A stretch of 64,000 nt of DNA, from NCBI GenBank assembly GCA_977020255.1, contig CDROCS010002991.1, positions 248,001-312,000 of the forward strand, written 5' to 3'. Numbering within the stretch: position 1 is the stretch's first letter; each line of letters starts with the position of its first letter. The notes beneath the pieces are model-generated. The model ran no database searches. It worked only from the letters and a program-made list of their open reading frames with translations, and was not told the DNA's origin. Position numbers and translations under genes: made by a program. Source of the stretch: Obrimoposthia wandeli. Lineage: Eukaryota. Shown here piece after piece: positions 5,592 to 58,235 of this stretch.

Positions 5592-5634
5592 TTATCTTTT
5601 CTATAAACAAACCCGTTTAAACTTATTGTTTCAA

Positions 5635-5916: not shown

Positions 5917-5969
5917 TAATATAAACAATATTAAAAATGAAAGAGTATATGCAATGGAGTTAAATAATA

Positions 5970-7272
5970 ATGCTGTATTTCGCGGCTGCCACAAATGAGT
6001 CAATGGTGGCAGAGTTGGATGACCACGAGTGGCGGCTGGTCACGGACGAATGTGATGGTCTCACTCTCTCTGCTACTCCAACTCCGATAGCAGACAATAC
6101 GGTACCTGAACCATTCACAAGGCCTCAAACTCCGATGCGACCAGTTAGAAGAATAAAAGCAACGAATGAGGTTAGACTATTAATTTATTTCATATGTTTT
6201 TTAATTTCATTTTCAGAAACTTCAACTGGATATGGAACCGTCGGTAACCATGACGAAGAGGCTGCTAGAACCGCAATACTTGGCGAGTCAATGCAGCCAG
6301 GTGGTGCCAAGGAGTCAGCTCCAATACCTAGCGACTCCAGATAATATTAAGGTAAATTATTTTAAATTAGATAATAATTTTAATTATTCACATAGGAAGC
6401 CGACTTGGTGGAGGAAGTTCTGGAGGAGGCAACACTCAAACTACCCGTGGATAGGAAGCAAGCGGTAGTTAGGAAACCGCGAAAACATCAAGTGAAAACA
6501 TCGACAGTCTACCGGAAGAAGGCCAAGTTGGTGAAACAGGTAAACCGGTCTGTTATTGAGGTAAATTATTTATATATTTAAATTTATTGATGTTTTTTTT
6601 GCAAGAACCCGCAACACTTATTTAGGAATGGATGAGAGAGGTAACTACAATTCCAGGGAGGTTGAAGCAGAAGGCGGTGGTACGCAAAACCAAACGCGCT
6701 AAAAAGGTGAAAACCAGTTTTCTTCAGTCTATCAAGGTATCAGTGGAGCAACAGCATAAACTTTCTGATCCTATAATTGAGGTAAATTTTAAAAAATATA
6801 TTTATGTTTATTAAATAAATATTTTATTAAAGTTTATTAAAGTTTTTTATGCAGGAACCTGTACATATAACTGAGGAGACGTGGATAGAAATTGATCCTT
6901 TCCCACAGAGACGGATGAAGCGAGCAGCAGTGCAAAAGACGAAGTGCTCCAGAAAAAGCCACCGCAATGCTCAATTCTACAGAGGCGGTGATTGGCCGAC
7001 AGGAGATTCTCCCATCTCCAGTGGACGATGAGCCAATTTTGTACGAAAGGATTCCAGTGTCTCTGATCGAAATTAGCCCGCTTCCCAGTCAACGACGCAT
7101 GCAGGAGACTTCGATGGAACCGGCTCCATTAAGTATCAGTCAAAATTTGGCCAGAGCTCGGGAGACAGCTTCTCTTTTGCCAGCAGCATCTACCAGCCAG
7201 AACTTGAAGAGGGCCTGGGATGAAGCTGTATTGGACGAATTGTTAGCGGACTGGAGACCCCGCAACTGGTAA
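5970..7272 (+). pseudogene. Multi-exon gene for a repetitive basic/Pro-rich protein, apparently decaying
   Basis: Phase-0 exons 5970-6170, 6217-6351, 6396-6560, 6626-6781 and 6855 onward, separated by short GT-AG introns. Repeated motifs KQAVVRK and IEI.P.PQRRM. Frameshift near 6960-6975. Confidence 0.55.
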
Positions 7273-8099
7273 TGCTTCCAGATTCGTGAGGGCAGCAGGA
7301 TGCAGTCTCCCACCAGCTTCAGTGTGGAAAGAAGGAGAAAGTGAAAAATGCTCCGCGGAAGAGGAAACCTTCAAAACCGATGACTTCTTCGTCGAGGCCA
7401 TCTACATCGGCCAAAACCTCAGGGAACGCCAATTGCTGCACAACAATCGGTGCAGCAAAAAAAGAAGCCAGCCCACCAAAGAAGAAGTGCCGTTTACTCC
7501 GATAAAACGCAGTCGGAGGGATTTCGATGAGGATGATCCCAATAATGACTTTGTGAAGTGTTTTAGAAATAATATAATTTATAAAACATAATTTTATGTG
7601 TTGGGCTTTTATTTTTAAATATTTTTATTTTAATTTCAAAAAAACATCTTTCAATTTACAGATTTTTTACGAAATTTATTAATATTAAAATGCAATGATT
7701 AGTTATAGATTTATTAAATTATAAACTCTCATTTGATAAATAAAAATATATTATTTAATTGAATACGATTGGATTAAAAATATTTCAACTTTATATATAT
7801 ATAGGTTGAAATTTATTTACATCTTCATTATTAAAATAATGGAATTTACTAATATGCAAAATCTCGTGATGAAGATAGAAGACAATATAAGAGAAATGCG
7901 AAGAAAGGAGTTTTAAGAAAGAGGGTCCTGAATCAAAATTTATATGCTGCTGTAGCGACCGAGTGGAATCGAAGGATGGAGATTCAAGACATGCGGCTAG
8001 TTGAACGATGAAGGTTCCTGGGCTGGAATAAGAAGATGGAATTGGAGCAAAAGCAACTGGTGAAAAAAGAAGAGTGGGGATTTAACGAGAAAAATTGAA

Positions 8100-10002
8100 T
8101 ACGGAGTACTTTGATATTTTACTAAATTTTGATTATTGATTTATATTTTAATTCGTTATAAACAAGGGGATTTGCTACATATTTGGGTAATTATGCAAGA
8201 ATATATCATAGACTTTGAGGCTTTCATTAACTGAAATGGAGATTATATTATAAAAGAATTATGTATTATGGATATATGCGACGTTTCTCATCCTTTGCAT
8301 TTCATATTTCATATATATATCTTTTTACGTTCAAATTCACTACCTTCTTGGCTTTTATCTGATTTAACTTTTAAATCAAATTAACAACGTCAGGTAAAAC
8401 ATTATCTAGTTTTATTAAGTCCATGCTTCTTAAAAGTTGGTATTAATTTATTATCCTTAGATGAAGGTAGTCCTTTCCTAATGTTGATACAAATCGCCCG
8501 AGTCTCTTCAAAAAAGTAAAGGCAAATCTACCTAATGTTCTAAGCCAGCTGTATCATTATTGTTTACCAACAAAATATGGTAATTCTCCTTGTTGGCTTT
8601 GACTATAATCTTCAATTATTGCCGGCTTCGCCATTTCGCTTTAGGTCCGATAACTCAATCATTTGGAATCAGTGAGTAAATTCGAATTGATAAGTGTTTA
8701 ACAACTAAAGTGAATAATATATTTTAAAGTAAAAACAAGTAATTTGAATTGATACGTGGATAAGCATTTGAAGGGATTAACATATTTTCAAGAAATAAAA
8801 TTGATAATATATTAGTTAAGGTAATTTAACTGATAACGTATTGAAAGGTAAAAGTAATCCGAATAAAGGATTAGCATAGAACGCATAAGAAGTTGTGCGA
8901 GAAAAAGTAAAAAGTTTCACCCTACTTCCTGTGAAGTGTTTGCGTATAGCTCTAGTGTATATCCGTTTACGAATACTAGTACACTGTTGTGATATGTTTT
9001 CATTACACTCTCTCTTTCTCTTTGTGTTGTCATTTTGTTTTATGTGTGCACATGTTGTGATTTTGTTGCAATTATTGCAATTATGTATTAATAATAATGA
9101 TTGCAATTTTATGGATTATAATAATGTAATTAGTAGCCTCGCTACATAAAAGATTTGAATGGAAAGTAGTTTTAAAAATTATCTATAAAATAAATCAATT
9201 TTGTACAAGATCTTGTCTTCTCAATTCAAATCCCTCAATTGCATAACTTCAATAAATTGGCGCCTGAACAAACGAAAAAGAAACGAAACTCAATCCAACT
9301 CTAATCAACTCTCAATCTAACTCTCGTCCACTCTCAATCCAACTCTCGTCAACTTTCAATACAACAACCCTCTACAACGTACCGAACAAATCAATTACCA
9401 ATCTCCTTCTCACTACAATTTGGTGCCAAAAGCAATCTACAACCAAACAATCCAACCACTCTAACATCGTTCCGCAACTTCTAATAACTACTCACGGTGG
9501 GAACAACTTCTGACGGTGGGAATTACTTCTGACGATGGGAATCACAACCCTCTATATCACAACATTTGGTTAAATGTTTTATTATTAACTGTATTAGTAT
9601 TTCTTAACTGTACTAGACACTTCTACATACAACAATTCTTATCACCAACAATCAAAATACAACACAAATGCCAAAAACACAACCACCAACCATCACACAC
9701 ATTAAGTCTCCACAATACTTTGCTGATGAAAGCAACAATCCAACTGATTGGATAAATTTAACACATAATACTTTAACATCCACAAACAAACACACCAACA
9801 TAGAGATCACAACACACATCATACGCAAGCTGCCCGCTGCCTAATCAGACTGCAGTCAGCCCAATGACATTCTAAGCCACAAACACCCCACGAATGAGTT
9901 AATTAGGCACATCAACTAAAATCGAGGAAACGTGACAAAAAACGCAATCGAGCAATTACTCAATCTAATTACGAGGATCTAGTTTCAAATAGAAACCCCA
10001 AC
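8100..10002 (+). mobile_element. LTR-retrotransposon 5' region relic with primer-binding-site-like TGGCGCC at 9258
   Basis: aataaat-TGGCGCCTGAAC is followed by low-complexity ACA-rich sequence similar to 21480-22000 (-), and ends in the shared structured motif at 9971-10002. Boundaries approximate. Confidence 0.35.
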
Positions 10003-30205: not shown

Positions 30206-30766
30206 AGAAGTGTAAAGTGTCGGTTCTAAAACAATAGCACACAAAGCCCCCCCCCCCGAACAAGGCACAAGGAACAAAGCACATCTGAAATTTGTTTAGT
30301 CATACAGATGTGCTTTGTTCCTTGTGCCTTGTTCGGGGGGGGGCTTTGTGTGCTATTGTTTTAGAACCGACACTTTACGTCTCGAAATTTGTTTGGTCTT
30401 ATGCGTCACTTACGATTATGTAGGTTAATATTTTGTAACATTAAGTATATAGTTCAAAAATTTAAAAATTTAAAATTTAAAAATTTAAAATTTAAAATTA
30501 AAAAAATTAAAAAATTAAATATGAAAATTAAAAATTTAAATTTTAATTCAAATTAAATATGAAAATTAAAATTTTAATTTGAAAATTAAATATGAAAATT
30601 AAAAATTAAAATTTTGAAATTAAACACAATTGACCGTCCCAAATTTTATTTGCAACTATTTAATTTACTTAGTACTGCGACCTCATTCCAGGAGTTAGAC
30701 TGCCCCGCATAACCGGACAGCTATCGCAGTTTTATCTTAAGAAACGTTATTGTTTATAGTAGGAGT
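30206..30766 (+). repeat. Left TIR, containing a terminal palindrome (30212-30378) and AT-rich heptamer repeats (30455-30615)
   Basis: Reverse complement of 44718-45250 on both sides of the assembly gap. Confidence 0.92.
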
Positions 30767-30822
30767 CTATATTTATATAATGAATAAAGCAAAGTAACAT
30801 CGATAAATATATATTAGTACAA

Positions 30823-31473
30823 TTATAAGCGAACTTGTCCATCAGTAATTTTCCAGATTGGTTTATGAAGACCTGTACAGTTGATTTTGTATCCCTGTAT
30901 TGAAATGACGATCATCCACTTGAGTCCAGTTCCCATATTGTCAACATTAAAGTCGTGATCTCGCTTGAAAAGATTAGGATCAGCTCGAATTATTATATGA
31001 TTCCCAACTATGATGTTGAGATGCATCGACTCAAAAGTTTTGTTAAGATCATCAATATCTGACGGATTTAATCTATGTATCTTGAAATCGTATTTTGACT
31101 TATTCAGAGCCACCGGAAACATGAATCCATATATGATTGGAGTCTTCAAAAAATTCATTTGCCAGTTATAAAACATAACCGGCTTGGTGTACTTCAAATC
31201 GTTAGACTCAAATATTACATCTGATGGTTTATTGTTGAACGGTTTCTTATGTTTGGGTGTAGAGACTATATCATCAATAAAGAGATCCTCATTTGTTGCT
31301 TGCTTCTCAATCTTGATAATCTTGGTTTGTTTATGGTTGTTGCTTGTCATAGTTTGCTTCTTTGGTTTTGATATAAAAACTACATCATCATCATCGGTAT
31401 CCACATCTGTGTCTGTAAGCCTTGTTGGTGGTGGCTTCTCGAACTTAAGAGATTTAGTTTGTTTAGAGTTCAT
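30823..31473 (-). CDS. ORF X, 216 aa, unknown (possible OB-fold ssDNA-binding protein)
   Basis: Intact ORF. Acidic DDDDVVFI segment in a disordered N-terminus; conserved C-terminal domain shared with 3831-4241. Confidence 0.7.
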   Translation of the reverse strand: MNSKQTKSLKFEKPPPTRLTDTDVDTDDDDVVFISKPKKQTMTSNNHKQTKIIKIEKQATNEDLFIDDIVSTPKHKKPFNNKPSDVIFESNDLKYTKPVMFYNWQMNFLKTPIIYGFMFPVALNKSKYDFKIHRLNPSDIDDLNKTFESMHLNIIVGNHIIIRADPNLFKRDHDFNVDNMGTGLKWMIVISIQGYKINCTGLHKPIWKITDGQVRL

Positions 31474-31601
31474 ATCAAAATAATGAATTCTATACCAAAA
31501 GTGGTAGCTTATATATATATATATATCATACTCGATTCTGATTGGATAATCTTTAGCTTAAAAATTTATATATAGATTGGGTTATTTCCATCAATTCAAT
31601 C

Positions 31602-32092
31602 ATGAATCTTGCAAATATTAATTATAAAGGTAAAGTTAAAGGAGACATCAGTCACTTACCCTTCAAAACCGGGAAACCATGTCAGTACGTGCACAGGTGT
31701 AAGGATTATACCCTTATAATCTTCCGTTCAGGTATGTTTTTATGTTAGTTAGTTAGTTATTATTATTAGGAGCATGCAGGATAATGGGTTGCAAGAAACC
31801 TATTACTACAACTTTGCTCAAGTGTCCATTTAGAATAAAGATTGATCGTATTCAATCAGTAACGGTTACTGTCGATTTAGGTAAGAAGGTGAACCTATAC
31901 AAGTTGTCTCAAAAGTGTGGAGCTGCGTGCATGTTCGAACCTGAGTTGTTTCCTGCTTTAAGGTTTACAAAACACAATCCTCTGTGCGTCAACATATTTG
32001 CAAGCGGGAAAGTGGTCATACTCGGTCTCAAGGATTTGGATTATCACTTTGATGTGACTTTGATAATAACTGATATTTTACTTTTGATATAA
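31602..32092 (+). CDS. TATA-binding-protein-like protein, about 150 aa, two exons (31602-31731, 31770-32092)
   Basis: Repeat 1 ...TLIIFRSGACRIMGCK versus TBP TALIFSSGKMVCTGAK; repeat 2 MFEPELFPAL...VNIFASGKVVILGLK versus TBP YEPELFPGL...LIFVSGKVVLTGAK. A 38-nt GT-AG intron restores the frame. Confidence 0.85.
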
Positions 32093-32133
32093 ACAATAAA
32101 TTTTAGTTGAATTTTATTCTTACATGATTTGAA

Positions 32134-33033
32134 ATGCTAGTTGATTATATACTTCATTATACAACTGTTGATGATGTTTTAGTTAGACGAAAAGTAGGTT
32201 ATTCTAGAATGAAAGTTTTACACTGGAAATATAGACGTGAAAGTGAAAGATTAAGATCATTAATTATAAATTTTAAAGGGAAACAATCTGTAAATGATTT
32301 AGCTAAAGCCGGATTTTATAAACATGATGATGATTCAACCGATAAAGTAAAATGTATATACTGTCAAGGTGCGTTATCCGAATGGGAATGGTATCTTAAA
32401 CCAATGAAGCAACATATGAAATTTTTTCCTACATGTCCATTTATTTTAAAGTTAAATGTTTCAAATGTACCAATAATTGAAACTATGAACAAGAAAATCG
32501 ATTTTGATACATCACCATTGATTGGAAAAGTACATGTATCAGATATTGATATAAAATTACCTGATATATGCTATTCAAACAGTTTAGGACCCTATAATGA
32601 GGCTAATGTTATTGAGAAAATCGAAACAGATTGTATAATTGAATATCCTTTGACTATCGAGAAATTCGATATGTTGATGGATACAAACCAAATCAGATAT
32701 TTGAAAAAGTTTTTCACAAAAGATAGAATAAAATCTGTTTTAAAATATAAAATGATGCGATATGGTGAATACAATTCACTATTTGAATTGCTTTGTGATT
32801 TATCTAATTTAGAAATGAAACCTGAGAAACAATATATAAATATACTTTCATACATTTTAAAGGTACCCGAATGTGTAGTATGTTTAAATAATCATATTGA
32901 AGTAGTATTTCTCCCTTGTGGACATGTAAATACATGTATATCATGTTCTAGAATGTTACATTCATGTCCAGTATGCAGATGTCTGATCGAACGGAGAGTA
33001 AGAAATGTAAAATTTCATGGTATAAACAATTGA
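32134..33033 (+). CDS. Inhibitor of apoptosis (one BIR + C-terminal RING)
   Basis: BIR: LAKAGFY...VKCIYCQGALSEWE....KQHMKFFPTCPF. RING: CVVC....EVVFLPCGH..TC..C....CPVCR. Confidence 0.92.
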   Translation: MLVDYILHYTTVDDVLVRRKVGYSRMKVLHWKYRRESERLRSLIINFKGKQSVNDLAKAGFYKHDDDSTDKVKCIYCQGALSEWEWYLKPMKQHMKFFPTCPFILKLNVSNVPIIETMNKKIDFDTSPLIGKVHVSDIDIKLPDICYSNSLGPYNEANVIEKIETDCIIEYPLTIEKFDMLMDTNQIRYLKKFFTKDRIKSVLKYKMMRYGEYNSLFELLCDLSNLEMKPEKQYINILSYILKVPECVVCLNNHIEVVFLPCGHVNTCISCSRMLHSCPVCRCLIERRVRNVKFHGINN

Positions 33034-33051
33034 AATTTATGAATTATATAA

Positions 33052-33318
33052 ATGGATAAAAACGATAAATTAGTTGATGATGCAGTCGAGGAAATTATAA
33101 ACGGAACAATAAATGGAGTTCAATACTTTTCTAGTTTTGATGGACTTTCTCGTAATAATATAAAGGAAATTGTTTGCACCCATGTCTATAGAGATATCAA
33201 ACGGATTAAGGATTTTGAAAAATTTGTTCAAATTAATCGTTCAAACATGATGTATATAACCTTTTCTGCATCAATTTTTAATTCTCTGTTGTTGTATATA
33301 TTAATAAAACGTATATAA
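33052..33318 (+). CDS. Small protein with C-terminal hydrophobic helix
   Basis: 88-aa ORF with a homolog at 5635-5916. Confidence 0.7.
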   Translation: MDKNDKLVDDAVEEIINGTINGVQYFSSFDGLSRNNIKEIVCTHVYRDIKRIKDFEKFVQINRSNMMYITFSASIFNSLLLYILIKRI

Positions 33319-33348
33319 ACAATCGTTTTTTTTGATTTATTATTATTG

Positions 33349-33996
33349 ATGATGATAAAACTTAAAAATAACGCGGTTTACCAAATAATAGGACCTAGTG
33401 GGAGTGGGAAAACACATTTTGTAACTAAATTACTTCAAAATAAAAACATGTTTAATCAAAAGTTTAGTAGAATATACTGGCATTACGGAGGTGTAGGTGA
33501 ATCTGGTCTAACACGAACAGAATTAGGTAAATTGAAGGGTATTCATTTTATTAATGGTTTTGATAATAAATGGTCTGAGAGGTTAAATTCAGGAGATGTC
33601 ATTGTAATTGATGATTTGTTTGATGAAGCAAATAAAGAGTCGGGTTTTAATAACCTGTTTACCAAAATAGCTAGACATAGAAATGTAACAGTGATTTTTA
33701 TCACTCAAAATCTCTTTCATCAAGGCGGTCAACACCGTACTCGGAATTTAAATGTACATTATCTAGTATTATTTAAAAATCCGCGAGATCAAACGGTTAT
33801 CGACTTTGTTGCCCGTCAAGCTTTCCCTTGTAATAAGCAATATTTGATTGACGCATTTCAAGATGCAACAACTAACCCTCATGGATACTTGTTTTTAGAT
33901 TTTACACAGGAATGTCCAGACGATTTACGCGTGAGAACCGATATTTTCAATAATGATTTTGTATATAAACAAAAGAAAAGCCTATCTACTTGTTAA
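33349..33996 (+). CDS. A32/FtsK-HerA-type packaging ATPase
   Basis: Walker A GPSGSGKT, Walker B VIVIDD, followed by ARHRN and FITQN. Confidence 0.92.
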   Translation: MMIKLKNNAVYQIIGPSGSGKTHFVTKLLQNKNMFNQKFSRIYWHYGGVGESGLTRTELGKLKGIHFINGFDNKWSERLNSGDVIVIDDLFDEANKESGFNNLFTKIARHRNVTVIFITQNLFHQGGQHRTRNLNVHYLVLFKNPRDQTVIDFVARQAFPCNKQYLIDAFQDATTNPHGYLFLDFTQECPDDLRVRTDIFNNDFVYKQKKSLSTC

Positions 33997-33998
33997 TC

Positions 33999-34310
33999 AT
34001 GTCATTTATGAAAGAAACAATGCCTAGTGGAGTTAGACCTAAATGGAGACCGGGTGATAAATTACACGCTAATGATAACAAATTGATGTTAAAGAAGAAT
34101 GCTCATATTAAAAATCTTATTAAATCAGTGCTTCATCGGCGTAAAGTAGTCGATGAATCATTAAAGAAATCGGTAAAGACAGTAAAGAGAAAACCTGTAA
34201 AAAAGAAACCATTAAAGAAGAAACCTGTTAAGAAAGCAGTTGGAAAGTCGGTTAAGAAGTCGGATAAAAAGCGTGTAAATAAACTAGTTGGTAAATGGAT
34301 TAAACTATAA
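33999..34310 (+). CDS. Lys-rich basic protein (candidate DNA-condensing core protein)
   Basis: KKSVKTVKRKPVKKKPLKKKPVKKAVGKSVKK, with histone-H1-tail-like composition. Confidence 0.6.
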   Translation: MSFMKETMPSGVRPKWRPGDKLHANDNKLMLKKNAHIKNLIKSVLHRRKVVDESLKKSVKTVKRKPVKKKPLKKKPVKKAVGKSVKKSDKKRVNKLVGKWIKL

Positions 34311-34341
34311 ACAATATTGCAAATAGTTTAATTCATTAAAC

Positions 34342-34671
34342 ATGTTATCAAAATCTATACTTCCCTACTTTCAGGCTTTAATCAAGGCTCCAAGCATATA
34401 TAGACAACGTATACTCAAGTCATTTCCACCCTTTGTTATAGATAAGTTGGTTGAAGTCTTGTTTAATATTACAAAAGGTACTGTAAAAATCGGTAATCAT
34501 AAACATAACCTTAGAAAACATCAAAAAGCTTTACTTGATTTAGTGAATACTAAAAGTAAAACTGGTAAACGTAGAGTAATTCTAAAACAAAAAGGTGGTT
34601 TTATCGGTGCATTAATACCTATAATTGCTACTTTAGTATCTCCTTTGATTGCAAAATTGATAAACTCATAA
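34342..34671 (+). CDS. Conserved Polinton small protein with an adenovirus pX-like C-terminus
   Basis: Ends QKGGFIGALIPIIATLV, resembling the GG-FLPALIPIIA C-terminus of adenovirus protein X. Confidence 0.7.
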   Translation: MLSKSILPYFQALIKAPSIYRQRILKSFPPFVIDKLVEVLFNITKGTVKIGNHKHNLRKHQKALLDLVNTKSKTGKRRVILKQKGGFIGALIPIIATLVSPLIAKLINS

Positions 34672-34722
34672 ACAAAATGGGTAATAACATACCAAACATC
34701 GATTTTAAATTCACTTGTTGTA

Positions 34723-35757
34723 ATGGAAACGATATGGTACGATCCCGAAAACCCAGCTGGGTACAGCGGCATTGGCAAACTATCATTAAAAAGTCAATCG
34801 ACTCAAAAGAAAACTCAGAAATGGCTGAGCAATCAGCTAGCATACAGTCTAAACAAGCCAATGAAGCGGAAGTTCCCGACTCGAGCATACAGAACAAGCG
34901 GTCCTAACGATTTATGGCAGGCCGATTTGATGGAAATGATACCATATGCAAGTATCAATGATGGTAACAAGTATATTTTAACATGTATTGACGTGTTTAC
35001 AAGGTATGCGCGTGTATTACCTGTAAAATCTAAATCAGGTAAGGATATAGAGGCTGCTCTAAGTATAATGACTGATAAAACTGTCTCCATACATGTGCAA
35101 ACTGATAAGGGTAAAGAGTTTTACAACAAAAATGTAGGTAGTTTATTTAAAAAATTAAATATTGAACATTACTCTGTAGTTTCACAATTCAAAGCTGCCC
35201 TAGTTGAAAGGTTTAATAGAACATTGAGAGATCGATTAAAAAGACATTTTATTGCACAAGGCAATAAAAGATGGGTTGACGTTTTACCAAAAGTAATGAC
35301 TTCATACAATCACAGTAAGCATAGAGGTTTAGACGGATTGAGACCTGTCGATATTAATGATAAAAATGCAATGGAAATTTGGTTGAGTCGTAATCAAGTC
35401 GATAAAGTTAATAAACCCAAACATAAGACTGGTGATTATGTTCGGATATCAAAGTTTAGTGGTAGCCCCTTTATTAAAAACTTTGATCAGAATTGGAGTG
35501 ATGAAGAGTTTAGGATAGAGAAAATAGACAAACGTGCAAATCCTGTAATGTACTCTATAGTTGATGATGACTGTAATGTAATAACAGGGAAATTTTATGA
35601 ACCTGAACTACAAGTAATTGATAAACCTACACTTTTCCGTATCCAAGAAGTCGTAAAATCTAAAGGCCGTAGTAAGAATAAACAATATCTCGTAAAGTGG
35701 CATGGATATTCTGAATCAACATGGATCAAAGCAAGCCAGATAGAGACTTCTATATGA
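34723..35757 (+). CDS. Retroviral-type (rve) DDE integrase with C-terminal chromodomain
   Basis: WQADL, QTDKGKEF and VERFNRTL catalytic motifs; KQYLVKWHGY...TW chromodomain. Confidence 0.95.
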   Translation: METIWYDPENPAGYSGIGKLSLKSQSTQKKTQKWLSNQLAYSLNKPMKRKFPTRAYRTSGPNDLWQADLMEMIPYASINDGNKYILTCIDVFTRYARVLPVKSKSGKDIEAALSIMTDKTVSIHVQTDKGKEFYNKNVGSLFKKLNIEHYSVVSQFKAALVERFNRTLRDRLKRHFIAQGNKRWVDVLPKVMTSYNHSKHRGLDGLRPVDINDKNAMEIWLSRNQVDKVNKPKHKTGDYVRISKFSGSPFIKNFDQNWSDEEFRIEKIDKRANPVMYSIVDDDCNVITGKFYEPELQVIDKPTLFRIQEVVKSKGRSKNKQYLVKWHGYSESTWIKASQIETSI

Positions 35758-36890
35758 TTTTACCGAGTAATAGTTGTCCGAAAACTCAACCTAATAATAT
35801 GGCTTCATTATTCACTGTAGATTGAGAGAATCCAATTACGTTAAATGGTAAATGGGAGGCGACATTAACTGAATTTACGTACACAAACACTCCTGTTATT
35901 TTAAATAAGGGCAGTGAAATTAATTATTCTATTAAATTCTCCAATCAACAGACTGATCAAATATCTTTATCAGTAATTCATACTCAAGTAGAAGTAGAAA
36001 AGAAAGAACCGCAATTGCATGGTGATAAATCAGAACCAAAAGTTATTAAAAAGACAATTAATAAAATATCAAAACTCACCGTCACGTCTAAAGATAAGAT
36101 TGCAAAGCTTTCTATTTCCTTAAGCACAGTTGGTGTAGGTATTGATAAAAAGGATAATGTTGTACTAATAAAATCCGTCAACAACAAAAAATTCTATATC
36201 AAGATGGATGCTGACGCTAAAAATGAATTAGGATTCATTTTCAATACATTAACTTCAGAAGGTTTCGAGTCTGATGATAAAGGAGTTTTACTTGGATCAA
36301 CGTCTATCAGACCTGATTGCAGTGCACATAATTTACAATATATGCATTATAAAACCGGTTCATACAACAAGAAAATTGTATTTACAGAAGATTTAAATAA
36401 TAATAATGTAAATGCATTAGTAGCATACATTAAATCTAAATGCGACGTCATATTTAAAAGATTTTATATTGATGATAATGATAAGCTAATAAAATTTGTA
36501 TTAAAGAATGGAATTGAGCATATTGGATTTGATCAACGTTTAATGTATGTATTAGGGTTAGATAAATCACGATTTACGGGCAACGGGTCTGGACTACCTC
36601 GATTAAATTACGAGTTTGATCACATGTACTTGTATTCTAGTCTGTGTGAACCTGTAAACGTTGGAGGTCAAATGATACCCTTATTAAAATCTATATGGTT
36701 AGATAAAAATAAAGCACCAGGAGACACGGTTAATATCGCAATATACAGACCCATGTATATCCCTTTAGCATCAAATGTAATCTCAAACATTGAAATTAAT
36801 ATTAGAAACGATGCAGGTGTTCCAATAAGTTTTTCCAACAATGCAAAAGTATCCCTTACCATACATGTCCGTTGTATAGATCAGGTATAA
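35754..36890 (+). CDS. Minor capsid (penton) protein with one in-frame TGA at 35823-35825
   Basis: MILPSNS...FTVD*ENPITLNGKWEATLTEF N-terminus is in frame with ORF 36015-36890, which has MYLYSSLCEP..VG...PLLK and PMYIP...IEINIR. The ATG overlaps the integrase stop (ATGA). Confidence 0.8.
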
Positions 36891-36926
36891 ACAATCTGTA
36901 TTCAAAAATAGTTGTCCATTACAGTT

Positions 36927-37334
36927 ATGAATATAATTGAGACATTTAGTGGACCTCAACAAGGTGGTGAATTACCATATTTTGTAGGTAAACAGTACGG
37001 TTCGGGATGGTTGAAAACATTGGGACGGTTAGCATTCCCTATACTGAAAAGATTAGGCCGTGTTGGAGTTAAAACAGTTCAAGATGTAATAATGAACAAC
37101 AAATCTGTGTTACCAATGCTTAAACAACATGCACTAGGGGAAGTTGCCGGAGCCATACCGGAGGCTAAGGAAGCTTTTGGTACAGTTGTTAAAATTATTA
37201 AAAATCGACGTAAACGTAAAGCAAGTGAAGCAGCACAAACGGTTGAACCCGAAACTAAAAAGCAAGAGGGTAGTGGTAGAAAGAAAGCATCTAGTATAAA
37301 CAAACGAAGAAAACAAGGTACAATATTTGCTTAA
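36927..37334 (+). CDS. Conserved Polinton core/cement protein with QxGG/QxGSG sites and an amphipathic helix (pVI-like by inference)
   Basis: QQGG..., QYGSG-WLKTLGRLAFPILKRLG, QEGSG, and a basic C-terminus. Homolog at 56942. Confidence 0.7.
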   Translation: MNIIETFSGPQQGGELPYFVGKQYGSGWLKTLGRLAFPILKRLGRVGVKTVQDVIMNNKSVLPMLKQHALGEVAGAIPEAKEAFGTVVKIIKNRRKRKASEAAQTVEPETKKQEGSGRKKASSINKRRKQGTIFA

Positions 37335-37336
37335 TA

Positions 37337-38560
37337 ATGGCTTGTGGTAAATCTGAATTATGTATTTTTGATCGAGCTTTGCCCCAGGTAGTTGTAAGTA
37401 ATGGTAGCTTTGAAGATATATATCCAACAAACAATATTACCGGAACAAGAACATCAGAGATTCTGTTTAAAATTCAAGGTTCAGATATTGAGTACTTAGA
37501 TTTGAATGATACCTTGTTGTTTGTGAAAATTAAAGTAACGAAAACTGATGGTACAGAAATAGCTGTTGCAGATAATGTGGTCCCATCAAATTTCTTGATG
37601 CATTCCCTATTTAAAAGCATAGATATAACAATGAATAATACTGTAGTAGAAACCCATCCTCAATATGCACAAAAAGCTATGATTGAAACCATACTAAACT
37701 ATAGCACAGACACTAAAGACACTTGTTTGTCGAGTATAGGTTATGATGATGATGATGATAAGCGTAAAGGTTGGGCTGCTCGCTCAAAAGAAATTGACTT
37801 GTGTGGGACTCTTTGATCTGATATTTTTGAGCAACCAAAGTATCTCTTACCTGGTGTGTCTATCATGGTAAGACTTGTACCTAATAAATCTATGTTTAGT
37901 CTGAACTACGGAACGACTCTATCGCGAATCATATTTATTGAAGCTAAACTTAAAGTCAGAAGAGTCAGAGTTGAGAATGATGTTTTAATGGGACATAATA
38001 TTGGTCTTGAATCTAGGAATGCTGTATATCCCTATACTCGCAGAAAGCTAATGTATCATACCTTAGCCATCGGTTCTACGAGTTTTTACAAGGATCAAGT
38101 GTTTGATGATGAACAATTGCCTAAATTTGTGTTGATTACGTTGCAAGCAGGTGAAAAACTTATCGGTAATGGTGCTACAGACTCTTCAACATTCGATCAT
38201 TCTAATGTTAACACTATCAGTCTTGCTAGAAACAGTGATTTTAACGAATCTTACAGTACAAACTTTGAAACAGGTGAAACCACCTTTGCATATGTCCAAT
38301 CTATCATTAGAAATATGGGTAATTTGGATAAGAATATAAACAATGGCGTATCACTGGATGAATTCAAAACCAAATATCCATTTTTCACGTTTGTTTTAGC
38401 CCCTGACTTTGATATCACGCAAAACCAATTAGCAAAACAGGGTAATTTACGCCTTGACATCAAGTTTCACAAGTCATTAACAGTCCCAACAAACGTACTG
38501 ATTTACGGGATTTTTGATTCTGAGTTTGAAATAACTAAAGGCCGACGTGTGATTGTATGA
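37337..38560 (+). CDS. Major capsid protein (double jelly-roll) with one in-frame TGA at 37814-37816
   Basis: ORFs 37337-37816 and 37856-38560 are in the same frame. Polinton MCP motifs: KSELCIFD...Q, YLDLNDTLL, LCG.L*SDIF.QPKYLLPGV, FDH.NV, GNLRLDIKF. Confidence 0.85.
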
Positions 38561-38937
38561 AGTGAGTTTTTAATTTATGTTTTAAGATTTTATTAACCCA
38601 AAGTACTGTTCAGGTGAATGAAATAACTAGTTTGCTGCTCGGACCGCGATTTAAGGGTGTATACCCGTTGGAAAAAATCCCAACATTAACGCCTGGGGGA
38701 TATATTGTCAATACACATACCTCAAATCTTCCTGGAGAACACTGGATTGCGTTATTCGTGAGACGGAATTCTGTACATGTGTATGACCCTCTTGGAGTAT
38801 ACTATCCGGGAAAACTTATCAAGCATGTAGAGTCTCAAGGAAAACATGTATATTACAACAAAATTCGTTCTCAAAACCCACTGACTACTAATTGCGGTCC
38901 ACTATGTATCTTATGGTTGTATGATCAAACTATATAA
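38557..38937 (+). CDS. Adenain-like cysteine protease, spliced (predicted exons 38557-38561 and 38604-38937)
   Basis: Catalytic motifs GEHW, YDPLG, Q....NCG..C. ORF 38614-38937 has no in-frame ATG; a 42-nt GTGAGT...AAG intron yields MNTVQVNEI. Confidence 0.85.
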
Positions 38938-39287
38938 ATGTCAAACCTTTTTATTTGTGTTGATTGGTAATAAAATTTGTATTCAAAATCGTATTTGTTT
39001 TATAAGCTTCAACTGTCCCATCGAAATTTAAAATTTATTTTTGAGTTTTGATAAATTAAAAAATAGATTTAAAATCTACTAATTAAGAGAAAATTAATGG
39101 TGTTAATTATTTTTAAAAATTTAAAGTTTAACGGTGTGAATTTCAGTTATGAAAAAATTCATAATTGATTGACCGTAATTAACCTTTATGATCACGTGTG
39201 TAGCAACTAGGGAATAAAGAGTCTTTATTACGCATTCCTAGTTTGTAAGTACACACGTGATGTGTGACGTGTACATCTAGGGCAGCA

Positions 39288-39328
39288 ACTACACTGATTG
39301 TGAACCATATATAAACAATCAGTGTAGT
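39288..39328 (+). promoter_or_regulatory. PolB promoter: TATATAAACAA flanked by a perfect 14-bp inverted repeat
   Basis: ACTACACTGATTGT (39288-39301) / ACAATCAGTGTAGT (39315-39328). Confidence 0.7.
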
Positions 39329-39405
39329 GTCATTTATCAATTTCATTCACAATTTCGAAAAGTAAGTATTTTTATTATTTTTATTTTTATTTAATTTTTT
39401 TTTAG

Positions 39406-42400
39406 ATGTCAAAAATTATTTTCGCGTACAATGCTAAGAAAAGATGGACGATGAAGCCTGTAGTGGCTGATGATGATGATGATGATGTCGACTTGGATGC
39501 GACACCTGTGAAGAAAGGTAATTTTGATTATTATTATTATTATTTTTAATTTAATTTAGCAATGCAGAGTGTCACACCACTGCCAATATCAATCGCACCA
39601 TGGCTTTCAACGCACCATGCTCCTACTAAGAAAAGAAGCCGAAAGCAGAAAATGTCAACAACAACAACAATATATGATGATGATGATGAAAAGAAGAAAA
39701 TGTCAAAAGTTTTTTTATCTCCTGAGAAATCTTCTCACTCTCAACTTCCTTCTTCTTCTTCATTTTCTCATTCTCATTCTCATTCTCCATATGATAATCA
39801 TTTATATAAACTTTTTGGGGATATAAGGGATATAAAATCTTATTCTCCCGACTGCGATAGCTGCCCGGTAACGCGGGGCAGTCTAACTCCTGGAATGGGG
39901 TCGCAGAATAAGTTAATTAAATCAAGAGGTTACCCCTTACTTTTTAAACCAGGAACACCTGTTGGGTCACCTGTTAATTCAGTAGAAAATTTCAACGTAA
40001 ATGAGATATACTCGGGTTTTGAAAATATCCCGTTTAAAAAATATTTTAATCAATTAAAGAAAGTAAAAAATCAAAATATTGATTTAAGTAAACTTAAAAC
40101 AGAAGGTAGGAAAGGTAAAAGATTTCGTCAGAAGCTGCGTAGATTGAGAAAACTACCAGCAGATATAACAATATTTGCAAATTTATTAGGGTCTTGCAAA
40201 CCCATTAATATTAGTCCAGGTCTGAAAATTACAGATCTGGCAAATAAATTATATGAAGTCTTTGAGACTGATCAAATTTATTTTAACCGTAATGGCATGC
40301 CCTTTGAAAGGGAAGCTATTATCGGTGATGTTTTACATGAGGGGGCTATTATCCATGTATACCCTAAACTTCGTGGAGGAAGTAACTTATGTACATTGTA
40401 CAAGTATTGCACAAACGTTAATCATGGAATAGAATGTCATAGTGTAATGCTTAAATATTATAAATTTAAAAGCGGTTTTATTTGTCCACATTGTGATGTG
40501 TTATATTGTATTGACTATCAAACATTTTATAATGATCATAAGGATCATCTGACGTATTTTAAGTCTAAAAAGTCAGCATACAAACGTAAAGTAATGAGAG
40601 TACCAACAATAGACAACAATAAAATAGCAAAAACTAATAATTTTACTGAAGAGTTTGATGTGGTAGACTCGTGGGAACCGGATAGTGTTGTAGAAATTGA
40701 TACTTATCCTGAAGTTGTAGAAATTATTGAGCCTTTAAACCCTAATGAAATCTTAAATAATAATAATATTGATGAACTTATAGATCAGGACGAGTTTATA
40801 ACAGAAAATGATTTTTTCGACTCACTCCTAATTATTACGGATGATGACTTTGATAATATTGTTACAATTAATTCAGATAATACATTAACTTTTAACAATC
40901 AAATAGGAGGTGCAATTCAATCAAACCTTGTTTTTGATGTTAGTGGATTAAACATGCTTAAACTATACATTAACGATACTATGCTAACTGAACTTACTAG
41001 CAGTATAGATGTGTTTGGTCCCTGTAAAATACAGTTTGGTGTTGAAACCGAATTTGTCAATAACGAGGGTCAACATAAAACATGGCATGTAAGCTGTAAA
41101 GCAAATATTTTTGAACAAGATTTTATCACTACAAGAACAGTTGAGCTCAACAATAAAATTGAAATTTATAAGGATATGAGTTCGGGATGGTCAGTATTTA
41201 AAATTCTGTTGGTATCCTTTAAATTTACCGCACTTTCAAACGTAGCAGGATCATCATTTATAAAAACCCCGGTTGCGCTTGCTAAAACACTATCTATAGT
41301 GAACGTAAATAATACTGATGATCAGTGTTTTAAATACGCTGTTCTCAGTATCCTACACTATAAAGATTTCAATCGAAACAGACAAAGAGTTGAAAACTAT
41401 AATGATTATTTAAATGAACTTATATGTGAGCCTGGTCCTATGAGGATAGACGGTATCAAGGCGTTTGAAAAACTCAATAATATAGCGATAACAGTATTCT
41501 CCTATAAACCTACAAAGGTAGAGCCTCATAGTAGTCATCTAGTGTTTAAAAACCCAGATGTTAATGTTATTTATAGAACGAGTCTTAAACAGTGCGAAAA
41601 AGTAGTAAACTTGTTGCTGTTGGAACAGAGCGGTAATTATCACTATACAGGGATTACAAACCTGAATATACTTTTAAATACTCAAAAATATAATGTGCGT
41701 CTCTTTTGGTGTGAGAAATGTCTTTTTGGATTTCGAACCACGATTTCATATGACAAACACAGGGCACATTGTAATATTAATACAGATTTAACAACCTTGT
41801 TTACAATGCCTAAAGAGATCAAGTGTCAATTTTCCGACTGGTCTAAATCTATTGCGCCACCATTTGTTGTATATGCCGACTTTGAGTCAATACTCGAGCC
41901 ACATAATACTTTCAAACACATTCATAAACCAATATCTATAGGGATGATTTTGAAAAACAACACTAATAATTCAATACAATATTTCAGTTATTACGGTCTG
42001 CAGTGTGCTAAACACTTTGTAGATAAATTAACTGAGTTGATAAATGGTGAAGTGGCAGATTTTTGGGTAAATAGTATTAATGTTCCTATGGTTTTTACTA
42101 ATAATGACATGTTAAACTTTAGAGATTGCACTAATTGCTATCTTTGTAAAAAATTAAACGATCGTATGGTTAGAGATCATGATCATATCACGGGTAAATA
42201 CTTGGGTGCGGCATGCAACAAATGCAATTTAAGTCGCAAGTTTGCAAAGAGACCGGTTTTACCTGTGGTGTTTCATAACCTTATGGGTTATGATATACAT
42301 CATATTTTAAAATATGCCGACTTGAAAGGTAAATCCTTTTCAATTATCCCTAAATCAAGTGAAAAGTTCATGTCCCTCCGTATAGAGATGAAGAGGGGGA

Positions 42401-44193
42401 CATTGAAATTCATTGATTCATACCTTTTTACAACGTCAAGTCTTGAATCCTTAGTTTCATACTTGCCAAGTTGCCCTTATACTACACAATACCTAAACCC
42501 TAATATTGCAACAAGTAAGGCGGTATTTCCATATGAATATATTAGTGGTGTTGATAGGCTTATGGAGACGCAGTTACCCGCTAAATCTGAGTTTCCTTCT
42601 CGAGTCACTGATCAACAATATAATGAAGCCCTAATGATGTGGACCGTATTAGGGTGTAATACTATTAAAGACTACATGCTTGAGTATATGAAACTTGACG
42701 TGTATCTCTTATGTGATGTTTTTGAGGCCTTTAGACAGAAAGTAAGGGATGATGATAATCTAGAGGCGCTCAATTTCTTTAGTATCCCTGGTCTCAGTTG
42801 GGCTAGCGCATTAAAAACATTAGAGTATGATGTGGATTTATTGCATGATCCCGAAATGTATAACATCTTTGAGGCAGGGATACGGGGAGGGATGACTTTC
42901 ATCAATAAACATTACGTTAAAACAACAGATGAAACATTCCTCCTATATATTGACATAAATAACTTATATGGCTGGGCCTTGAGTCAACCGTTACCACATA
43001 CGGATTTTACATGGGTATATGACGGTTTTGAAGCGATAATTGAGCTTATAACTGAGAGGGATATTCACGGTAATATGCAGGACTTGAGTCTTAAAGAACA
43101 TGGATACTTGTTGGAAATTGATTTAGGCATACCCATCAGTATTCATGATAAACTTGATGACTTACCGATTGCGCCTAATAGAGAAATCCCTCCCGGCTCA
43201 AAAGCTTCAAAGCTGTTGATGACCCATGAGGATAAAAATAATTACATCATACACTCACAACTACTACAATTTTACTTGTTTCTGGGTGCAGAAATTAAAC
43301 AAGTGCATAGAGCAATAAAGTTTCATCAAGCTCCTATATTTAAAACATATGTTGATATCAATAGCCGGAAACGGGCAGAGGGTACTACTACATTTGATAA
43401 AGAGTTTTATAAACTCAAAAATAATTCAATATATGGTAAGACAGTGGAAAATCTTAAAAAGCGTAAAGATATCCGTCTTACCAAGAATGATCGTCAGTTT
43501 ACTAAACTTGTTTCAAGCCCCTGGTTTAAGAAGCATACCCAAATAACCGACAATCTCAATCTTTTATTTATGCAAAAGAAAGAAATTTGTCTGGATCGCC
43601 CATCATATATTGGTCAAGCTGTGTTGGACTTATCTAAACTACGTATGTACCAACTACAGTATAGTGATCTTGACCGGTATCGTAAGCAATATCATTGTGA
43701 TATCAACATAGTTGCAATGGATACAGACTCGTTTTTCTTAGAGTGTAAGCATATAGATAAAGATGTCCCCTTAAAACAAATGATTAAAGATCAGATGTTA
43801 GATACGAGTAATTACCCGATCACACATGAGTTATTTAACGATTCTCATCGAAATGTGATTGGAAAGTTTAAAGATGAAAGCAAGGGGACAGTGCTTTATG
43901 ATGAATGGGTATTTCTGAAACCTAAATGCTACTCATTGAAAACGAGTATGAGGGCTAAGGGTATCTCCCTTAAACAAACCGAAATCAGACATGAGCATTA
44001 CATAAAGTGTTATGTTGATGATGAAATTATAACTGCCGGTCAGACACGTATTTTATCTCGCAATCATCAATTATTTACAATGTATAATGATAAAATTGCG
44101 TTAAGGTGTTATGACGATAAAAGGGTTTGGCTTGAGAAAAACAAATCCGTCGCATATGGACACTATAGTCTAAAATCTGGGGTAACCTCTTGA
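39406..44193 (+). CDS. polB: Protein-primed family B DNA polymerase polyprotein (Ubl, Zn finger, vOTU, Exo with EndoVII insert, Pol)
   Basis: Extra exon 39406-39517 splices in frame to 39560. Motifs YADFES, FHNLMGYD, YMKLDV, RGG, YIDINNLY, KLKNNSIYGK, DTDS. CYLC..VRDHDH.TG..GAAC..CN insert; vOTU DQCF...HY. Confidence 0.95.
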
Positions 44194-44204
44194 AAGTATT
44201 AACT

Positions 44205-44398
44205 AATATCCTCTTATTTTTAATGTGATAGTATGTATCTTTTTAATGCAATAGTATGTATATATTTTTAATGCTATAGTATGTATATATTTTTATTGAT
44301 GTTTATTTTTAATACATTGTATGTATCATAACCATGTCTTGACTTCCTACTAGCTACTCATTGGATAATTTCATTGGATAATTTCATTGGATAATTTT
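44205..44398. repeat. Short tandem repeats after polB (3 x ~24 bp ttttaatg..atagtatgtat; 3 x cattggataattt)
   Basis: Visible directly in the sequence. Confidence 0.75.
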
Positions 44399-44455
44399 AA
44401 CAAATTCTCTATAAATATAAACACATTTCAATCAACCAATTTCTCATTATTTCAA

Positions 44456-44695
44456 ATGACTACTTCTAAAGAAAAATTGCAAGCTCTCTATGATAACCTG
44501 AGCCCTACCTTGATGGCCCAGTATACTGAAAAGTACTTTAGCTTATTTGTTGCACCAGAACTTTTTGTCTCAAGGATTGAAGAACTTTATATGTATCACC
44601 TGTTTAATGGAGACTTTAAACCTAAAGTTGCAACAATCATTAAAATAGAAGAAGAAGAAAGCATGGATTGTGACAATGAATATAATTATGTATAA
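44456..44695 (+). CDS. Hypothetical 79-aa protein at the right end of the element
   Basis: First ATG at 44456, with TATAAACAC 40 nt upstream. Acidic C-terminus. Confidence 0.55.
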   Translation: MTTSKEKLQALYDNLSPTLMAQYTEKYFSLFVAPELFVSRIEELYMYHLFNGDFKPKVATIIKIEEEESMDCDNEYNYV

Positions 44696-44717
44696 ACATA
44701 GACTTTTTTTTTACTAA

Positions 44718-45250
44718 ACTCCTACTATAAACAATAACGTTTCTTATGATAAAAACTGCGATAGCTGTCCGGTTATGCGGGGCAGTCTAACTCCTGGAAT
44801 GAGGTCGCAGTACTAAGTAAATTAAATAGTTGCAAATAAAAATTTGGGACGGTCAATTGTGTTTAATTTCAAAATTTTAATNNNNNNNNNNNNNNNNNNN
44901 NNNNNNNNNNNNNNNNNNNNNNNNNNNNNNNNNNNNNNNNNNNNNNNNNNNNNNNNNNNNNNNNNNNNNNNNNNNNNNNNNNNNNNNNNNNNNNNNNNNN
45001 NNNNNNNNNNNNGTTACAAAATATTAACCTACATAATCGTAAGTGACGCATAAGACCAAACAAATTTCGAGACGTAAAGTGTCGGTTCTAAAACAATAGC
45101 ACACAAAGCCCCCCCCCCCCGAACAAGGCACAAGGAACAAAGCACATCTGTATGACTAAACAAATTTCAGATGTGCTTTGTTCCTTGTGCCTTGTTCGGG
45201 GGGGGGGGGCTTTGTGTGCTATTGTTTTAGAACCGACACTTTACACTTCT
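44718..45250 (-). repeat. Right TIR with terminal palindrome (45074-45244)
   Basis: Reverse complement of 30206-30766, interrupted by an N gap. Confidence 0.92.
44882..45012. other. Assembly gap inside the right TIR
   Basis: A run of N. It corresponds to the AT-rich heptamer repeats of the left TIR (about 30440-30604). Confidence 0.98.
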
Positions 45251-56141: not shown

Positions 56142-58235
56142 AGTAGGTGGACGTGTCCGGTTTAATCCACTCCGTTTGAGGGGAAGGGGGTACCACTGTT
56201 CTTTAAATCCGTGTGTATGAAGTGAAATTTCGTGCATATTGTCCTGTCTAATCCCCCCGACTAACCCCTTACAAGAGGAGGGGGAGGAGTACCCCACATT
56301 TTTTGTGTTATTATGAGTGAAATTTCGTGCATGTGTGCATGAATTTCACATCCAACCTAAAAAGTGATTAAAGAACACAGTAATCCATTTTGAACCCATC
56401 GACTTATCGTAGACGAGATTTCAGATATTAGTTTTGTATGAGTAAATTAGTAAATAGATAGTGAAGTGCATTGTAGTAATTTTATAATGAAGGAATTTGG
56501 TAAAATTAAAAAAATGGTAACTTGACGTTTACAGCAAAGAACAATATAAAACGGGTTTCCTTTGATTATGAACTCGCTAAAACCCTTGGTTTAACAGCAA
56601 ATACCTTTGAAACACATGCAGTAAAAACCATAAAAGCTAAAAATCATGCAAAAATGTTAAATTATATTAATCAGTTATATATTTATACTAGTTTGATGGA
56701 ACCAACGCTTGTAAGAGGACTATGAGTATCACTTTTAAGAACAATATAGATATCTCAAAGTCAAACTAAAATTGGAGAAGTTCCTATATTGGGAAGTTTC
56801 GTATAGATCAGCCGATGTGTCTTCCAGTTGCTCTCTTTTCTATAAACAATATTGAAATAAATATTAGAGATGATTCTGGACAATTTATGAATTTCACATA
56901 TGGAGCCAAGACAAATTTAACAATACATTAAAGAAAAGGAAATGGCGAATACGGCAATAATTGAAGCTTATAGTCAAAGCCAGCAAGATGATGAATTACC
57001 ATATTTTGTTGATAAACAATATGGATCCGGCTGGTTTAGAACATTAGGTAGATTTTCCATTCCTCCTTTGAAGAGACTCGGGCGATTTGTATCAAAATTA
57101 AGAAAGGATTACCCTTCATCTAAGGATTATAAATTAATACCAACTTTTAAGAAGAATGTATCTTATGAACTTGATAATGTTCTTCCAGACGTTGCTAATT
57201 TAATTAGGAAAGGTTAATCAAGTAAAAGTTAAGAAGGTAAAGGATTTCAACGTAAACAGAAACAAAATATTACTATAAACAAACGTAAGAAAGTCAAAGG
57301 AACAATATTTTAAAAATGAGTTGCGCCAAAACTGAATTGTGTATTTTTGATAAACCTCTTCCACAAGTTGTTGTAGACAATTCTTCCTTTAAAGAGAAAT
57401 TTCTAGTTAAGTCAGTTTCTGGAACCACTTTAACAGATTTATAATTATTTATTAATGGTTCCAATAGTGATTATTTAAATATTGAAATATACTTTGCTTT
57501 ATGTTCAAATAAAAGTAACAAATCGGGATGGTACTGATTTAGCAAAAAATGCCGATGTGACACCTGTAAATTATCTCTTTAATACTTTATTTAATGATAC
57601 CATTGTTACTCTTAATAATGTCAAAATTTAAGATGGAAATTCTTCCTATGCTCATAAAGCTTTGATTGAAAGTCTATTGAATTATAGTACTGATACTCAA
57701 AATAATAATTTGGTAACCATTGGTTATGATAAAACGGCTGCAACTCGCAAAGAATGCATTGCAGGTTCTAAAGCTTACGAAATGTGTGGGTCTTTGAGAT
57801 TGAATTTCTTTGAATAACCTAAATATTTAATTCCCGGTGTTAATGTACATCTTCGTTTGAAACGTAATAAATATAATTTTTCTTTGATAAGCACAGACGT
57901 TTTAAAACCTAGACTTGATATTTTGGATGCAAAATTGTATGTTTGAAGAGTTAAAACCGAGCAATCACTTTTAATGACAAATAATATAGGAATGAAAAAA
58001 ACAATGCTTGTTATCCTATTAGAGAAACTAAACTTATAACCCACTCTTTAGGTACGGGTACACAAGCTTTTAATAAAGATCAAAATTTTGGTGATGTAAG
58101 ATACCCGAAATTCGTTTTAATTTCATTTCAAAAATCTGCAAAGTTTTTAGGAAATTATACGACAAACGTAGCACAGTTTGTTAATCTAAATGTGGGTTCA
58201 GCAACACTTTCAAAAAATAGCGATTACAAGTAAGA
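56142..58235 (+). mobile_element. Internally deleted, decayed family B Polinton (terminus, penton C-terminus, core protein, MCP)
   Basis: AGTAGGTGGACGTGTCCGG terminus; LYIYTSLMEP and INNIEINIRDD (penton); ELPYFVDKQYGSGWFRTLGR (core); MSCAKTELCIFD (MCP, ATG 57316). Multiple stops and frameshifts. Confidence 0.85.

Follow-up and report, generated by a model that had tools for sequence, protein, structure and literature searches.

A Polinton of Obrimoposthia wandeli carries a gene for a minimal TBP-like protein, and most of its other genes are preceded by a nine-base box, TATAAACA(A/T), also written (T/C)ATAAACA(A/T), which is missing from the promoter of the TBP gene itself. The element TBP likely switches on the box genes, and its sequence predicts that it would use the host transcription machinery to do so. 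As to the wider interpretation, the balance tips slightly towards a one-protein early-to-late switch in an animal Polinton lineage, in which a 150-aa TBP without the host-regulator surface, linked to TFIIB, would read a private box. All positions given without a locus name refer to the window, i.e. the whole stretch of 64,000 nt that was analysed; features are collected in Table 1.

The element is 15,045 bp long, is flanked by a 6-bp target-site duplication (CAAAGG) and has what defines a Polinton/Maverick: a long PolB-type ORF (pPolB), an integrase of the rve-chromo type, a packaging ATPase, capsid genes and terminal inverted repeats; the gene set also includes an IAP. Pfam matches were obtained for the ATPase, the rve integrase and the capsid-like proteins, those to the capsid proteins being weak. 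The Polinton context proposed by the sequence-only reading, made from the letters of the window before this analysis, is thus borne out. The terminal inverted repeats contain long hairpins, near-perfect and located just inside both ends (30212-30378 and 45074-45244). The PolB ORF contains a segment (39851-39921) with 85% similarity to a stretch of the terminal repeat (30660-30730 / 44752-44847), and two short GT-AG stretches (39362-39405 and ∼39515-39557) suggest a spliced 5′ end of PolB behind the box at 39310.

The host genome (1.35 Gb) holds at least 150 copies of the element, a lower bound set by the number of exon 2 matches scored (150 of 150 were protein-identical). In the window copy, in-frame TGA codons interrupt the minor capsid frame (35823) and the major capsid frame (37814); the TBP exons and the frames of the ATPase, integrase and PolB are open. 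A second TBP-bearing Polinton, decayed, lies at ∼4400-8620 of the window; its TBP (5277-5543) is 53% identical, and TATAAACAA sites are present in it, as they are in a capsid-region fragment from another family (56800-58230).

ORF-L, the divergent neighbour of the TBP gene, adjoins that gene in many relatives. It is possibly a single-stranded-DNA-binding protein; the lead is weak, coming from Atlas hits (0.84-0.88) to large-virus clusters, some with Pox_I3/DUF2738, and a comparison with PDB sequences gave no match. One (TA)n box common to ORF-L and the TBP gene was considered and rejected, each gene having its own box.

Table 1. Coordinates of the Polinton, its TBP-like gene and the boxes (window positions)
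Feature	Position	Strand	Remark
Polinton/Maverick element	30206..45250	.	Inverted repeats, target-site duplication, Pfam matches, PolB-type long ORF
Box in left terminal repeat	30750..30758	-	Outward-facing
ORF-L, divergent neighbour of TBP gene	30823..31473	-	Candidate single-stranded-DNA-binding protein
TATATAAG box of ORF-L	31508-31515	-	
Putative host-type promoter of TBP gene	31567..31601	+	TATATATAG at 31567; initiator-like TCAATT/TCAATC at 31591/31596
TBP-like gene, exon 1	31602..31731	+	Most of repeat 1: S1, short H1, S3, S4 with Phe equal to yeast F116
Likely 38-nt GT-AG intron, phase 1	31732..31769	+	Within Gly codon after IIFRS
TBP-like gene, exon 2	31770..32092	+	S5 with family R-x-M-G motif, linker replacing helix H2, repeat 2 with EPELFP and VNIF
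TATAAACAA box, overlapping TBP stop codon	32088..32096	+	46 nt before first ATG of IAP ORF; in 29 of 29 copies read
Box	33021..33029	+	31 nt before 88-aa ORF at 33052
Box	33314..33322	+	35 nt before packaging ATPase gene
Box	33964..33972	+	35 nt before basic protein gene; also codes YKQ at ATPase end
Box	34306..34314	+	36 nt before adenovirus-mu/PX-like core protein gene
Variant box CATAAACAA	34667..34675	+	56 nt before integrase ATG at 34723
Box	36886..36894	+	41 nt before 135-aa ORF at 36927
Box	37295..37303	+	42 nt before major capsid gene
Box	39310..39318	+	Before likely spliced 5′ end of PolB; initiator-like TCATTC at 39343, GTAAGT at 39362
Box in right terminal repeat	44726..44734	+	Outward-facing

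The TBP-like gene spans 491 nt, which is no whole number of codons. Exon 1 supplies 43 codons and one base, after which its frame meets stops; exon 2 lies in another frame, where ORF P0001 (106 aa) starts at 31772. Arithmetically, removal of 38 nt leaves 453 nt, i.e. 150 codons and a stop. The sequence-only reading had described a two-repeat TBP of ∼150 aa; its length and fold stand, but the gene is not a single reading frame, being split by the likely intron. Pfam TBP (PF00352) matches exon 2 with E=2.9e-13 (49.9 bits against a cut-off of 22.9), while exon 1 alone gives no match to this family.

In 29 of 30 genomic copies examined (the 30th is missing the start anchor), the putative intron has GT..AG ends, a length of 34-43 nt with all three length classes modulo 3 represented, and an open exon 1 before it; these copies have at most one change in exon 1 and at most three in exon 2. 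In four public runs, every indel listed for the gene lies within the 38-nt stretch. Related loci L104 and L113 have a GT..AG stretch at the same codon; a clean donor there was found neither in L122 nor in the second TBP copy of the window. Judged by its behaviour across copies rather than by RNA, the stretch is likely an intron. Intronless natural relatives of the gene occur in the same genome (the L106 family and others) and in metagenomes.

A word search returned 76 TBP relatives, most of them 144-160 aa long, and a profile search gave a wider set of family members. Genomic context refers to the 62 metagenome loci fetched, not to proteins from the profile search: 38 of these loci carry another Polinton gene within the contig. 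Scans of IMG/VR with TBP, ATPase and integrase queries returned no relatives, and a search of a phage collection gave no match. The family is conserved, and changes between TBP families fall mostly at third codon positions. A tree that took in 71 of 181 rows separated the element family at 100/100 from 10 cellular-type and host rows, among them the host TBP and a host paralog. By this tree, the family lies outside the eukaryotic TBP group and does not nest among recent host TBP paralogs, a nesting that the sequence-only reading had named as a case against itself.

Two intronless host TBP paralogs (L096, 1066-1758, and L097, 1036-1758), in which F99 is missing, L114 is changed to R and T124 to M, group with eukaryotic TBP and not with the element family. 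The host genome also has several TFIIB/Brf-like paralogs (L123-L126, L124, L129, L130), two of which (L129 and L130) adjoin a frame resembling the N-terminus of a Polinton capsid protein; TFIIB P0219 is 88% identical to a host TFIIB exon. A distant, complete-looking 18-kb Polinton (L089, 1-18268) encodes a 179-aa TBP with helices H1 and H2 kept; its ATPase is 41% identical, and variants of the box are found in it beside the TBP gene. By motif, further ORFs of L089 presumably encode an SSB, a KilA-N-like and a phospholipase-like protein.

For the fold, a relative of the window protein (P0002, 61% identical to exon 2) was modelled with AF2 as a stand-in. The model (pLDDT 96) superposes on human TBP with Z 13.3 and an rmsd of 2.5 Å over 148 residues and predicts a two-repeat TBP saddle; helix H2 of repeat 1 is predicted to be absent from it and is present in the model of the L089 protein. 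The linker in place of H2 has at most 24 residues in 120 of 166 family rows versus 32 in canonical TBP. Repeat 1 is ∼11 residues shorter, before F116. Since L089 keeps both H1 and H2, the trimming of repeat 1 is likely derived.

Residues were counted, in yeast TBP numbering, over 166 family rows of 125-215 aa, 43 of 209 rows having been dropped for length; the reference residues agree with Table 1 of PMC12529657. As the sequence-only reading stated, repeat 2 of the window protein keeps both Phe positions (FEPELF, NIF) and the acidic EPE, and repeat 1 keeps IIF, is shortened and is without NPKRF, its losses including F99. Kept across the family are N69 (140 rows), F116 (160), E186 (152), E188 (164), F190 (165) and F207 (164), together with Q158 and P191; T215 is mostly replaced. 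Repeat 1 has V71 changed to N in 116 rows, F99 to P in 149, V122 to R in 159 and T124 to M in 164. N159 is S or T in 165 rows and V161 is T or S in 164; repeat 2 further has I194 changed to R in 126, V203 to C in 131 and L205 to N in 163. Three of the four intercalating Phe (F116, F190, F207) are therefore kept. The register at F99 comes from the alignment and from strand pairing in two models; a shift by one residue would give Lys instead of Pro, the Phe being lost regardless. As a set, the canonical TATA contacts (N69/N159/T124/T215 and V71/V122/V161/V213/L114/L205) do not occur in the element family.

The sequence-only reading had called the saddle 'half-rewired', with change confined to repeat 1, and had derived from this a box with a changed 3′ half. 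The first point does not hold: base-facing residues are changed in both repeats (V122R, T124M, N159S/T and L205N are each nearly invariant). As the box keeps its TATA, a simple code leading from a repeat-1 change to a 3′ change is not supported either. The architecture is asymmetric, in agreement with that reading, yet the saddle is rewired in both halves. With repeat 2 changed as much as repeat 1 and the TATA half unchanged, the logic from residue to base gives no neat fit. Residues 194, 203 and 205 are positions altered in the specificity mutant TBPm3, according to a passage of PMC1636458. For repeat 1, a likeness to the TBPm3 triad (aromatic at I103) was considered and given up, as a better register has F99 to P, A101 to Q, I103 to V and R105 to K.

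The short clade is predicted to lack the N-lobe basic patch of H2 for TFIIA, TAF1, Mot1 and Brf. As this patch lies largely on H2 (PMC7221094), a protein without the helix would be expected to escape all four. For TFIIB, the C-lobe glutamates E186 and E188 are present. These features, namely the intron, the deletion of H2 and a TBP-gene promoter that has no box, go beyond what the sequence-only reading contained.

The box itself stands out in frequency and in position. The window contains 18 copies of TATAAACAA, where 3.2 would be expected; 0 of 100 shuffles reached 18, and 11 of the 18 sites fall within the Polinton. Of 69 distinct box sites in the element and 60 metagenome loci, 32 are located 28-45 nt before an ORF start; none of the 75 sites found for three other TATAAA words and none of the 12 GTAAACAA sites has this placement. 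Within 150 nt of 287 starts, 45 of 61 sense box matches are at 30-49 nt and the antisense matches total 3; GTAAACA has no positional peak. Thirty sites with up to two mismatches agree fully at positions 2-7 (A at position 2 and C at position 7, each in 30 of 30); C7-A8 is strict and position 1 is loose. Each of the three frames holds sites (19, 8 and 15), and a further 40 are outside ORFs, which points to a constraint at the DNA level and leaves the YKQ codons at the ATPase end as no explanation.

At 26-60 nt, TATAAACA(A/T) precedes 25 of 35 trusted virion/accessory gene starts versus 0 of 47 TBP starts (Fisher p=2e-13, a value that overstates the evidence because many of the loci are kin and hence non-independent). 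The TATA-AACAA box noticed in the sequence-only reading is thus real and positioned. No exact box was found within 60 nt of five integrase starts; in the element, the protease frame has no box in front of it, and that of the minor capsid gene is inexact. Three tandem CCAAT-type words (44380-44455) precede the 79-aa ORF at 44456, which has a TATAAACAC variant. The box also stands before PolB and IAP and in both terminal repeats; it is not a pure late-gene mark, and 'second wave' fits better than 'late'.

In seven TBP-bearing long loci the box was found at 21 of 94 ORF starts, versus 0 of 81 starts in six IMG/VR Polinton-like contigs without TBP by the family HMM; the latter were found through PolB and are a weak control, being partial, from other Polinton groups and probably other hosts, with four of them close kin. 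Five of these six contigs have a canonical TATA-type word before the ATPase. The box and the TBP gene thus appear to travel together, and the distant L089 also has both. A pattern scan for the box plus an ATG returned 118 single-match loci.

The promoter of the TBP gene is of another kind. No TATAAACA(A/T) box occurs in 31567-31601. Across the family, a canonical TATA precedes 23 of 47 TBP starts versus 7 of 35 virion/accessory starts, and an initiator-like TCA(T/G/C)(T/A) 35 of 47 versus 5 of 35. There are two promoter classes: TATA plus initiator for the TBP gene and the box for most other genes. CCAAT-type words (ATTGG) lie between ORF-L and the TBP gene (31473-31601).

From these data, we think it rather probable that the element TBP is produced through the host TBP and in turn reads the box and recruits host TFIIB. 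The host TBP would initially transcribe the TBP gene, and likewise its divergent neighbour ORF-L, from an ordinary TATA-plus-initiator promoter; as the TBP gene avoids its own target box, there would be no start-up deadlock. Once made, the element TBP would occupy the box that lies 30-45 nt ahead of the genes for packaging, core, capsid and polymerase proteins, preferring TATAAACA(A/T) over TATAAAAG, and its kept EPE stirrup (E186/E188) would bring in host TFIIB and RNA polymerase II. In solved TBP complexes the repeat-1 face reads the 3′ half of the TATA element; the new polar residues N71, Q101 and R122 on this face may confer specificity for C7. Through the loss of H2, the element TBP would escape TFIIA, TAF1, Mot1 and Brf. 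Neither the element nor 60 related loci yielded a TFIIB-like ORF (Pfam on 13 ORFs and phmmer on 3109 six-frame pieces, best E 0.49), a search that a very divergent or spliced one could escape. For function of the TBP we count the kept Phe residues, the third-position bias of changes and a TBP gene that is intact in a copy where both capsid frames have stops.

The host TBP might instead read the box as a weak, C7-variant TATA, with the element TBP shifting host transcription as a decoy or inhibitor, either by sequestering TFIIB or by competition with host TBP. The C(-25) of PDB entry 1qn3 we take to be the C at box position 7, and work by Patikoglou from 1999 reportedly gives Hoogsteen detail at that position. 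Going by the title of 1qn3, wild-type TBP was crystallised on the C(-25) TATA variant, so host TBP may read the box unaided. A decoy would also agree with the stronger conservation of the TFIIB glutamates than of the TATA-reading residues and with the loss of many saddle residues and one Phe; by analogy with TRF2, a protein that has lost F99, N159 and T124 might bind TATA-type DNA weakly or not at all. It has no need, however, of the near-invariant new residues on the DNA face (R122, M124, N205, S/T159), and it leaves unexplained both why the TBP gene avoids the box used by the other genes and why a canonical TATA stands before the ATPase in contigs without a detected TBP. We regard it as unlikely. 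Kept TFIIB glutamates, and boxes that are mostly sense-oriented at a TATA-like distance before ATGs, speak against a TBP that binds the box mainly as an architectural or DNA-bending protein, with replication or packaging at the terminal repeats as its task and a secondary promoter role. The outward-facing box in both repeats (30750 and 44726) and the frequent adjacency of the TBP gene to a possible SSB gene would suit such a role, to which we give little credence.

About equally improbable is that a forkhead factor of the host binds the box, which would then be a forkhead site overlapping a TATA, used for tissue-specific expression and unrelated to the element TBP. The forkhead core is RYAAAYA; ATAAACA fits it, and the strict C7-A8 and loose position 1 agree. 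The forkhead-type GTAAACAA, however, is never positioned, GTAAACA lacks a peak, position 2 is always A, and the box is one-directional and at a fixed distance. A recent capture of a host TBP paralog, now in decay and without function for the element, is largely refuted and hardly credible as the origin of the gene: the window copy is split and the host does have divergent TBP paralogs (L096, L097), but the split behaves as an intron, and the family stands apart from every cellular-type and host row in the tree and is conserved across many element families with third-position-biased change.

The reading in which the element TBP drives the box genes bears on how Polintons turn on their capsid genes and on whether animal Polintons have a real viral cycle. 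If true, it would be evidence that elements mostly regarded as transposons run a viral gene programme with timed steps, and it would provide a minimal orthogonal promoter-factor pair for Pol II; once confirmed, the system might find use as a compact orthogonal tool for transcription. With its dedicated factor and its box of nine bases, the model is open to direct testing. The protein also offers TBP research a natural experiment, having three Phe and a polar saddle and lacking H2; its DNA specificity is predicted to change while the TFIIB contact is kept.

Among known systems, the literature already names a TBP-like gene for a Polinton-related element: the legend of Fig. 5 in Starrett 2021 (PMC8502044) has the label 'TBP' in MELD viruses with adintovirus-like PolB, for a gene that may belong to the family described here. 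That legend and section 3.4 of the paper contain no residue, family or promoter analysis of this TBP, and one of its supplements has no TBP mention. Literature on Polinton/Maverick TBP, or on TATAAAC with TBP, outside most subscription journals and Repbase, yielded no study of the gene or the box. The sequence-only reading knew of no such description for Polintons; within the literature covered, this stands as regards analysis, but not as regards the label in related viruses.

TBPs of large DNA viruses (Nucleocytoviricota, mirusviruses; BFVD matches) resemble the Polinton TBP in having lost the N-lobe patch for TFIIA, TAF1, Mot1 and Brf. In these other viral TBPs, according to part of PMC7221094, the first TFIIB glutamate is present in ∼40%, and they mostly co-occur with their own viral TFIIB; the Polinton TBP, by contrast, has near-invariant glutamates, and the search for a TFIIB-like gene in the 15-kb element gave none. 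Cellular TBP (PF00352; yeast 1ytb, human 1cdw and host TBP L093) has the same two-repeat saddle (Z 12-13) and has N69, Q158, F116, F190, P191, F207, E186 and E188 in common with the Polinton protein. The two differ in overall sequence (∼25% identity), in the H2 linker (21 versus 32 residues) and in V71, V122, T124, N159, V161, I194, V203, L205 and T215, mostly replaced in the Polinton TBP, where F99 becomes P. Precedents for altered binding are TRF2/TBPL1, in which Phe loss abolishes TATA binding (a passage of PMC10005294), and TBPm3, in which changes at 194/203/205 alter specificity (PMC1636458, in part). Unlike these, the Polinton TBP keeps three Phe, has R/C/N at 194/203/205 and lies outside the eukaryotic TBP group.

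The closest functional likeness is to the herpesvirus vTBP (KSHV ORF24, beta/gamma): a viral TBP fold with a polar saddle, a variant TATA and host Pol II. ORF24 has residues 114, 122, 124 and 205 of the saddle changed to polar ones and drives late genes via TATT, and a section heading of the same source gives it as modelled to be incompatible with TFIIB (PMC12529657, in part). ORF24 is, however, a 752-aa multidomain protein of a six-protein viral complex, with all four Phe and binding to the Pol II CTD; the herpesvirus type, a multidomain vTBP with a Pol II-binding N-terminus and five partners, is not what the Polinton encodes. By analogy, the Polinton TBP would work like a vTBP at most and is no member of that system: it is a lone 150-aa core without F99 and H2, with the TFIIB glutamates kept and with a box that varies at position 7.
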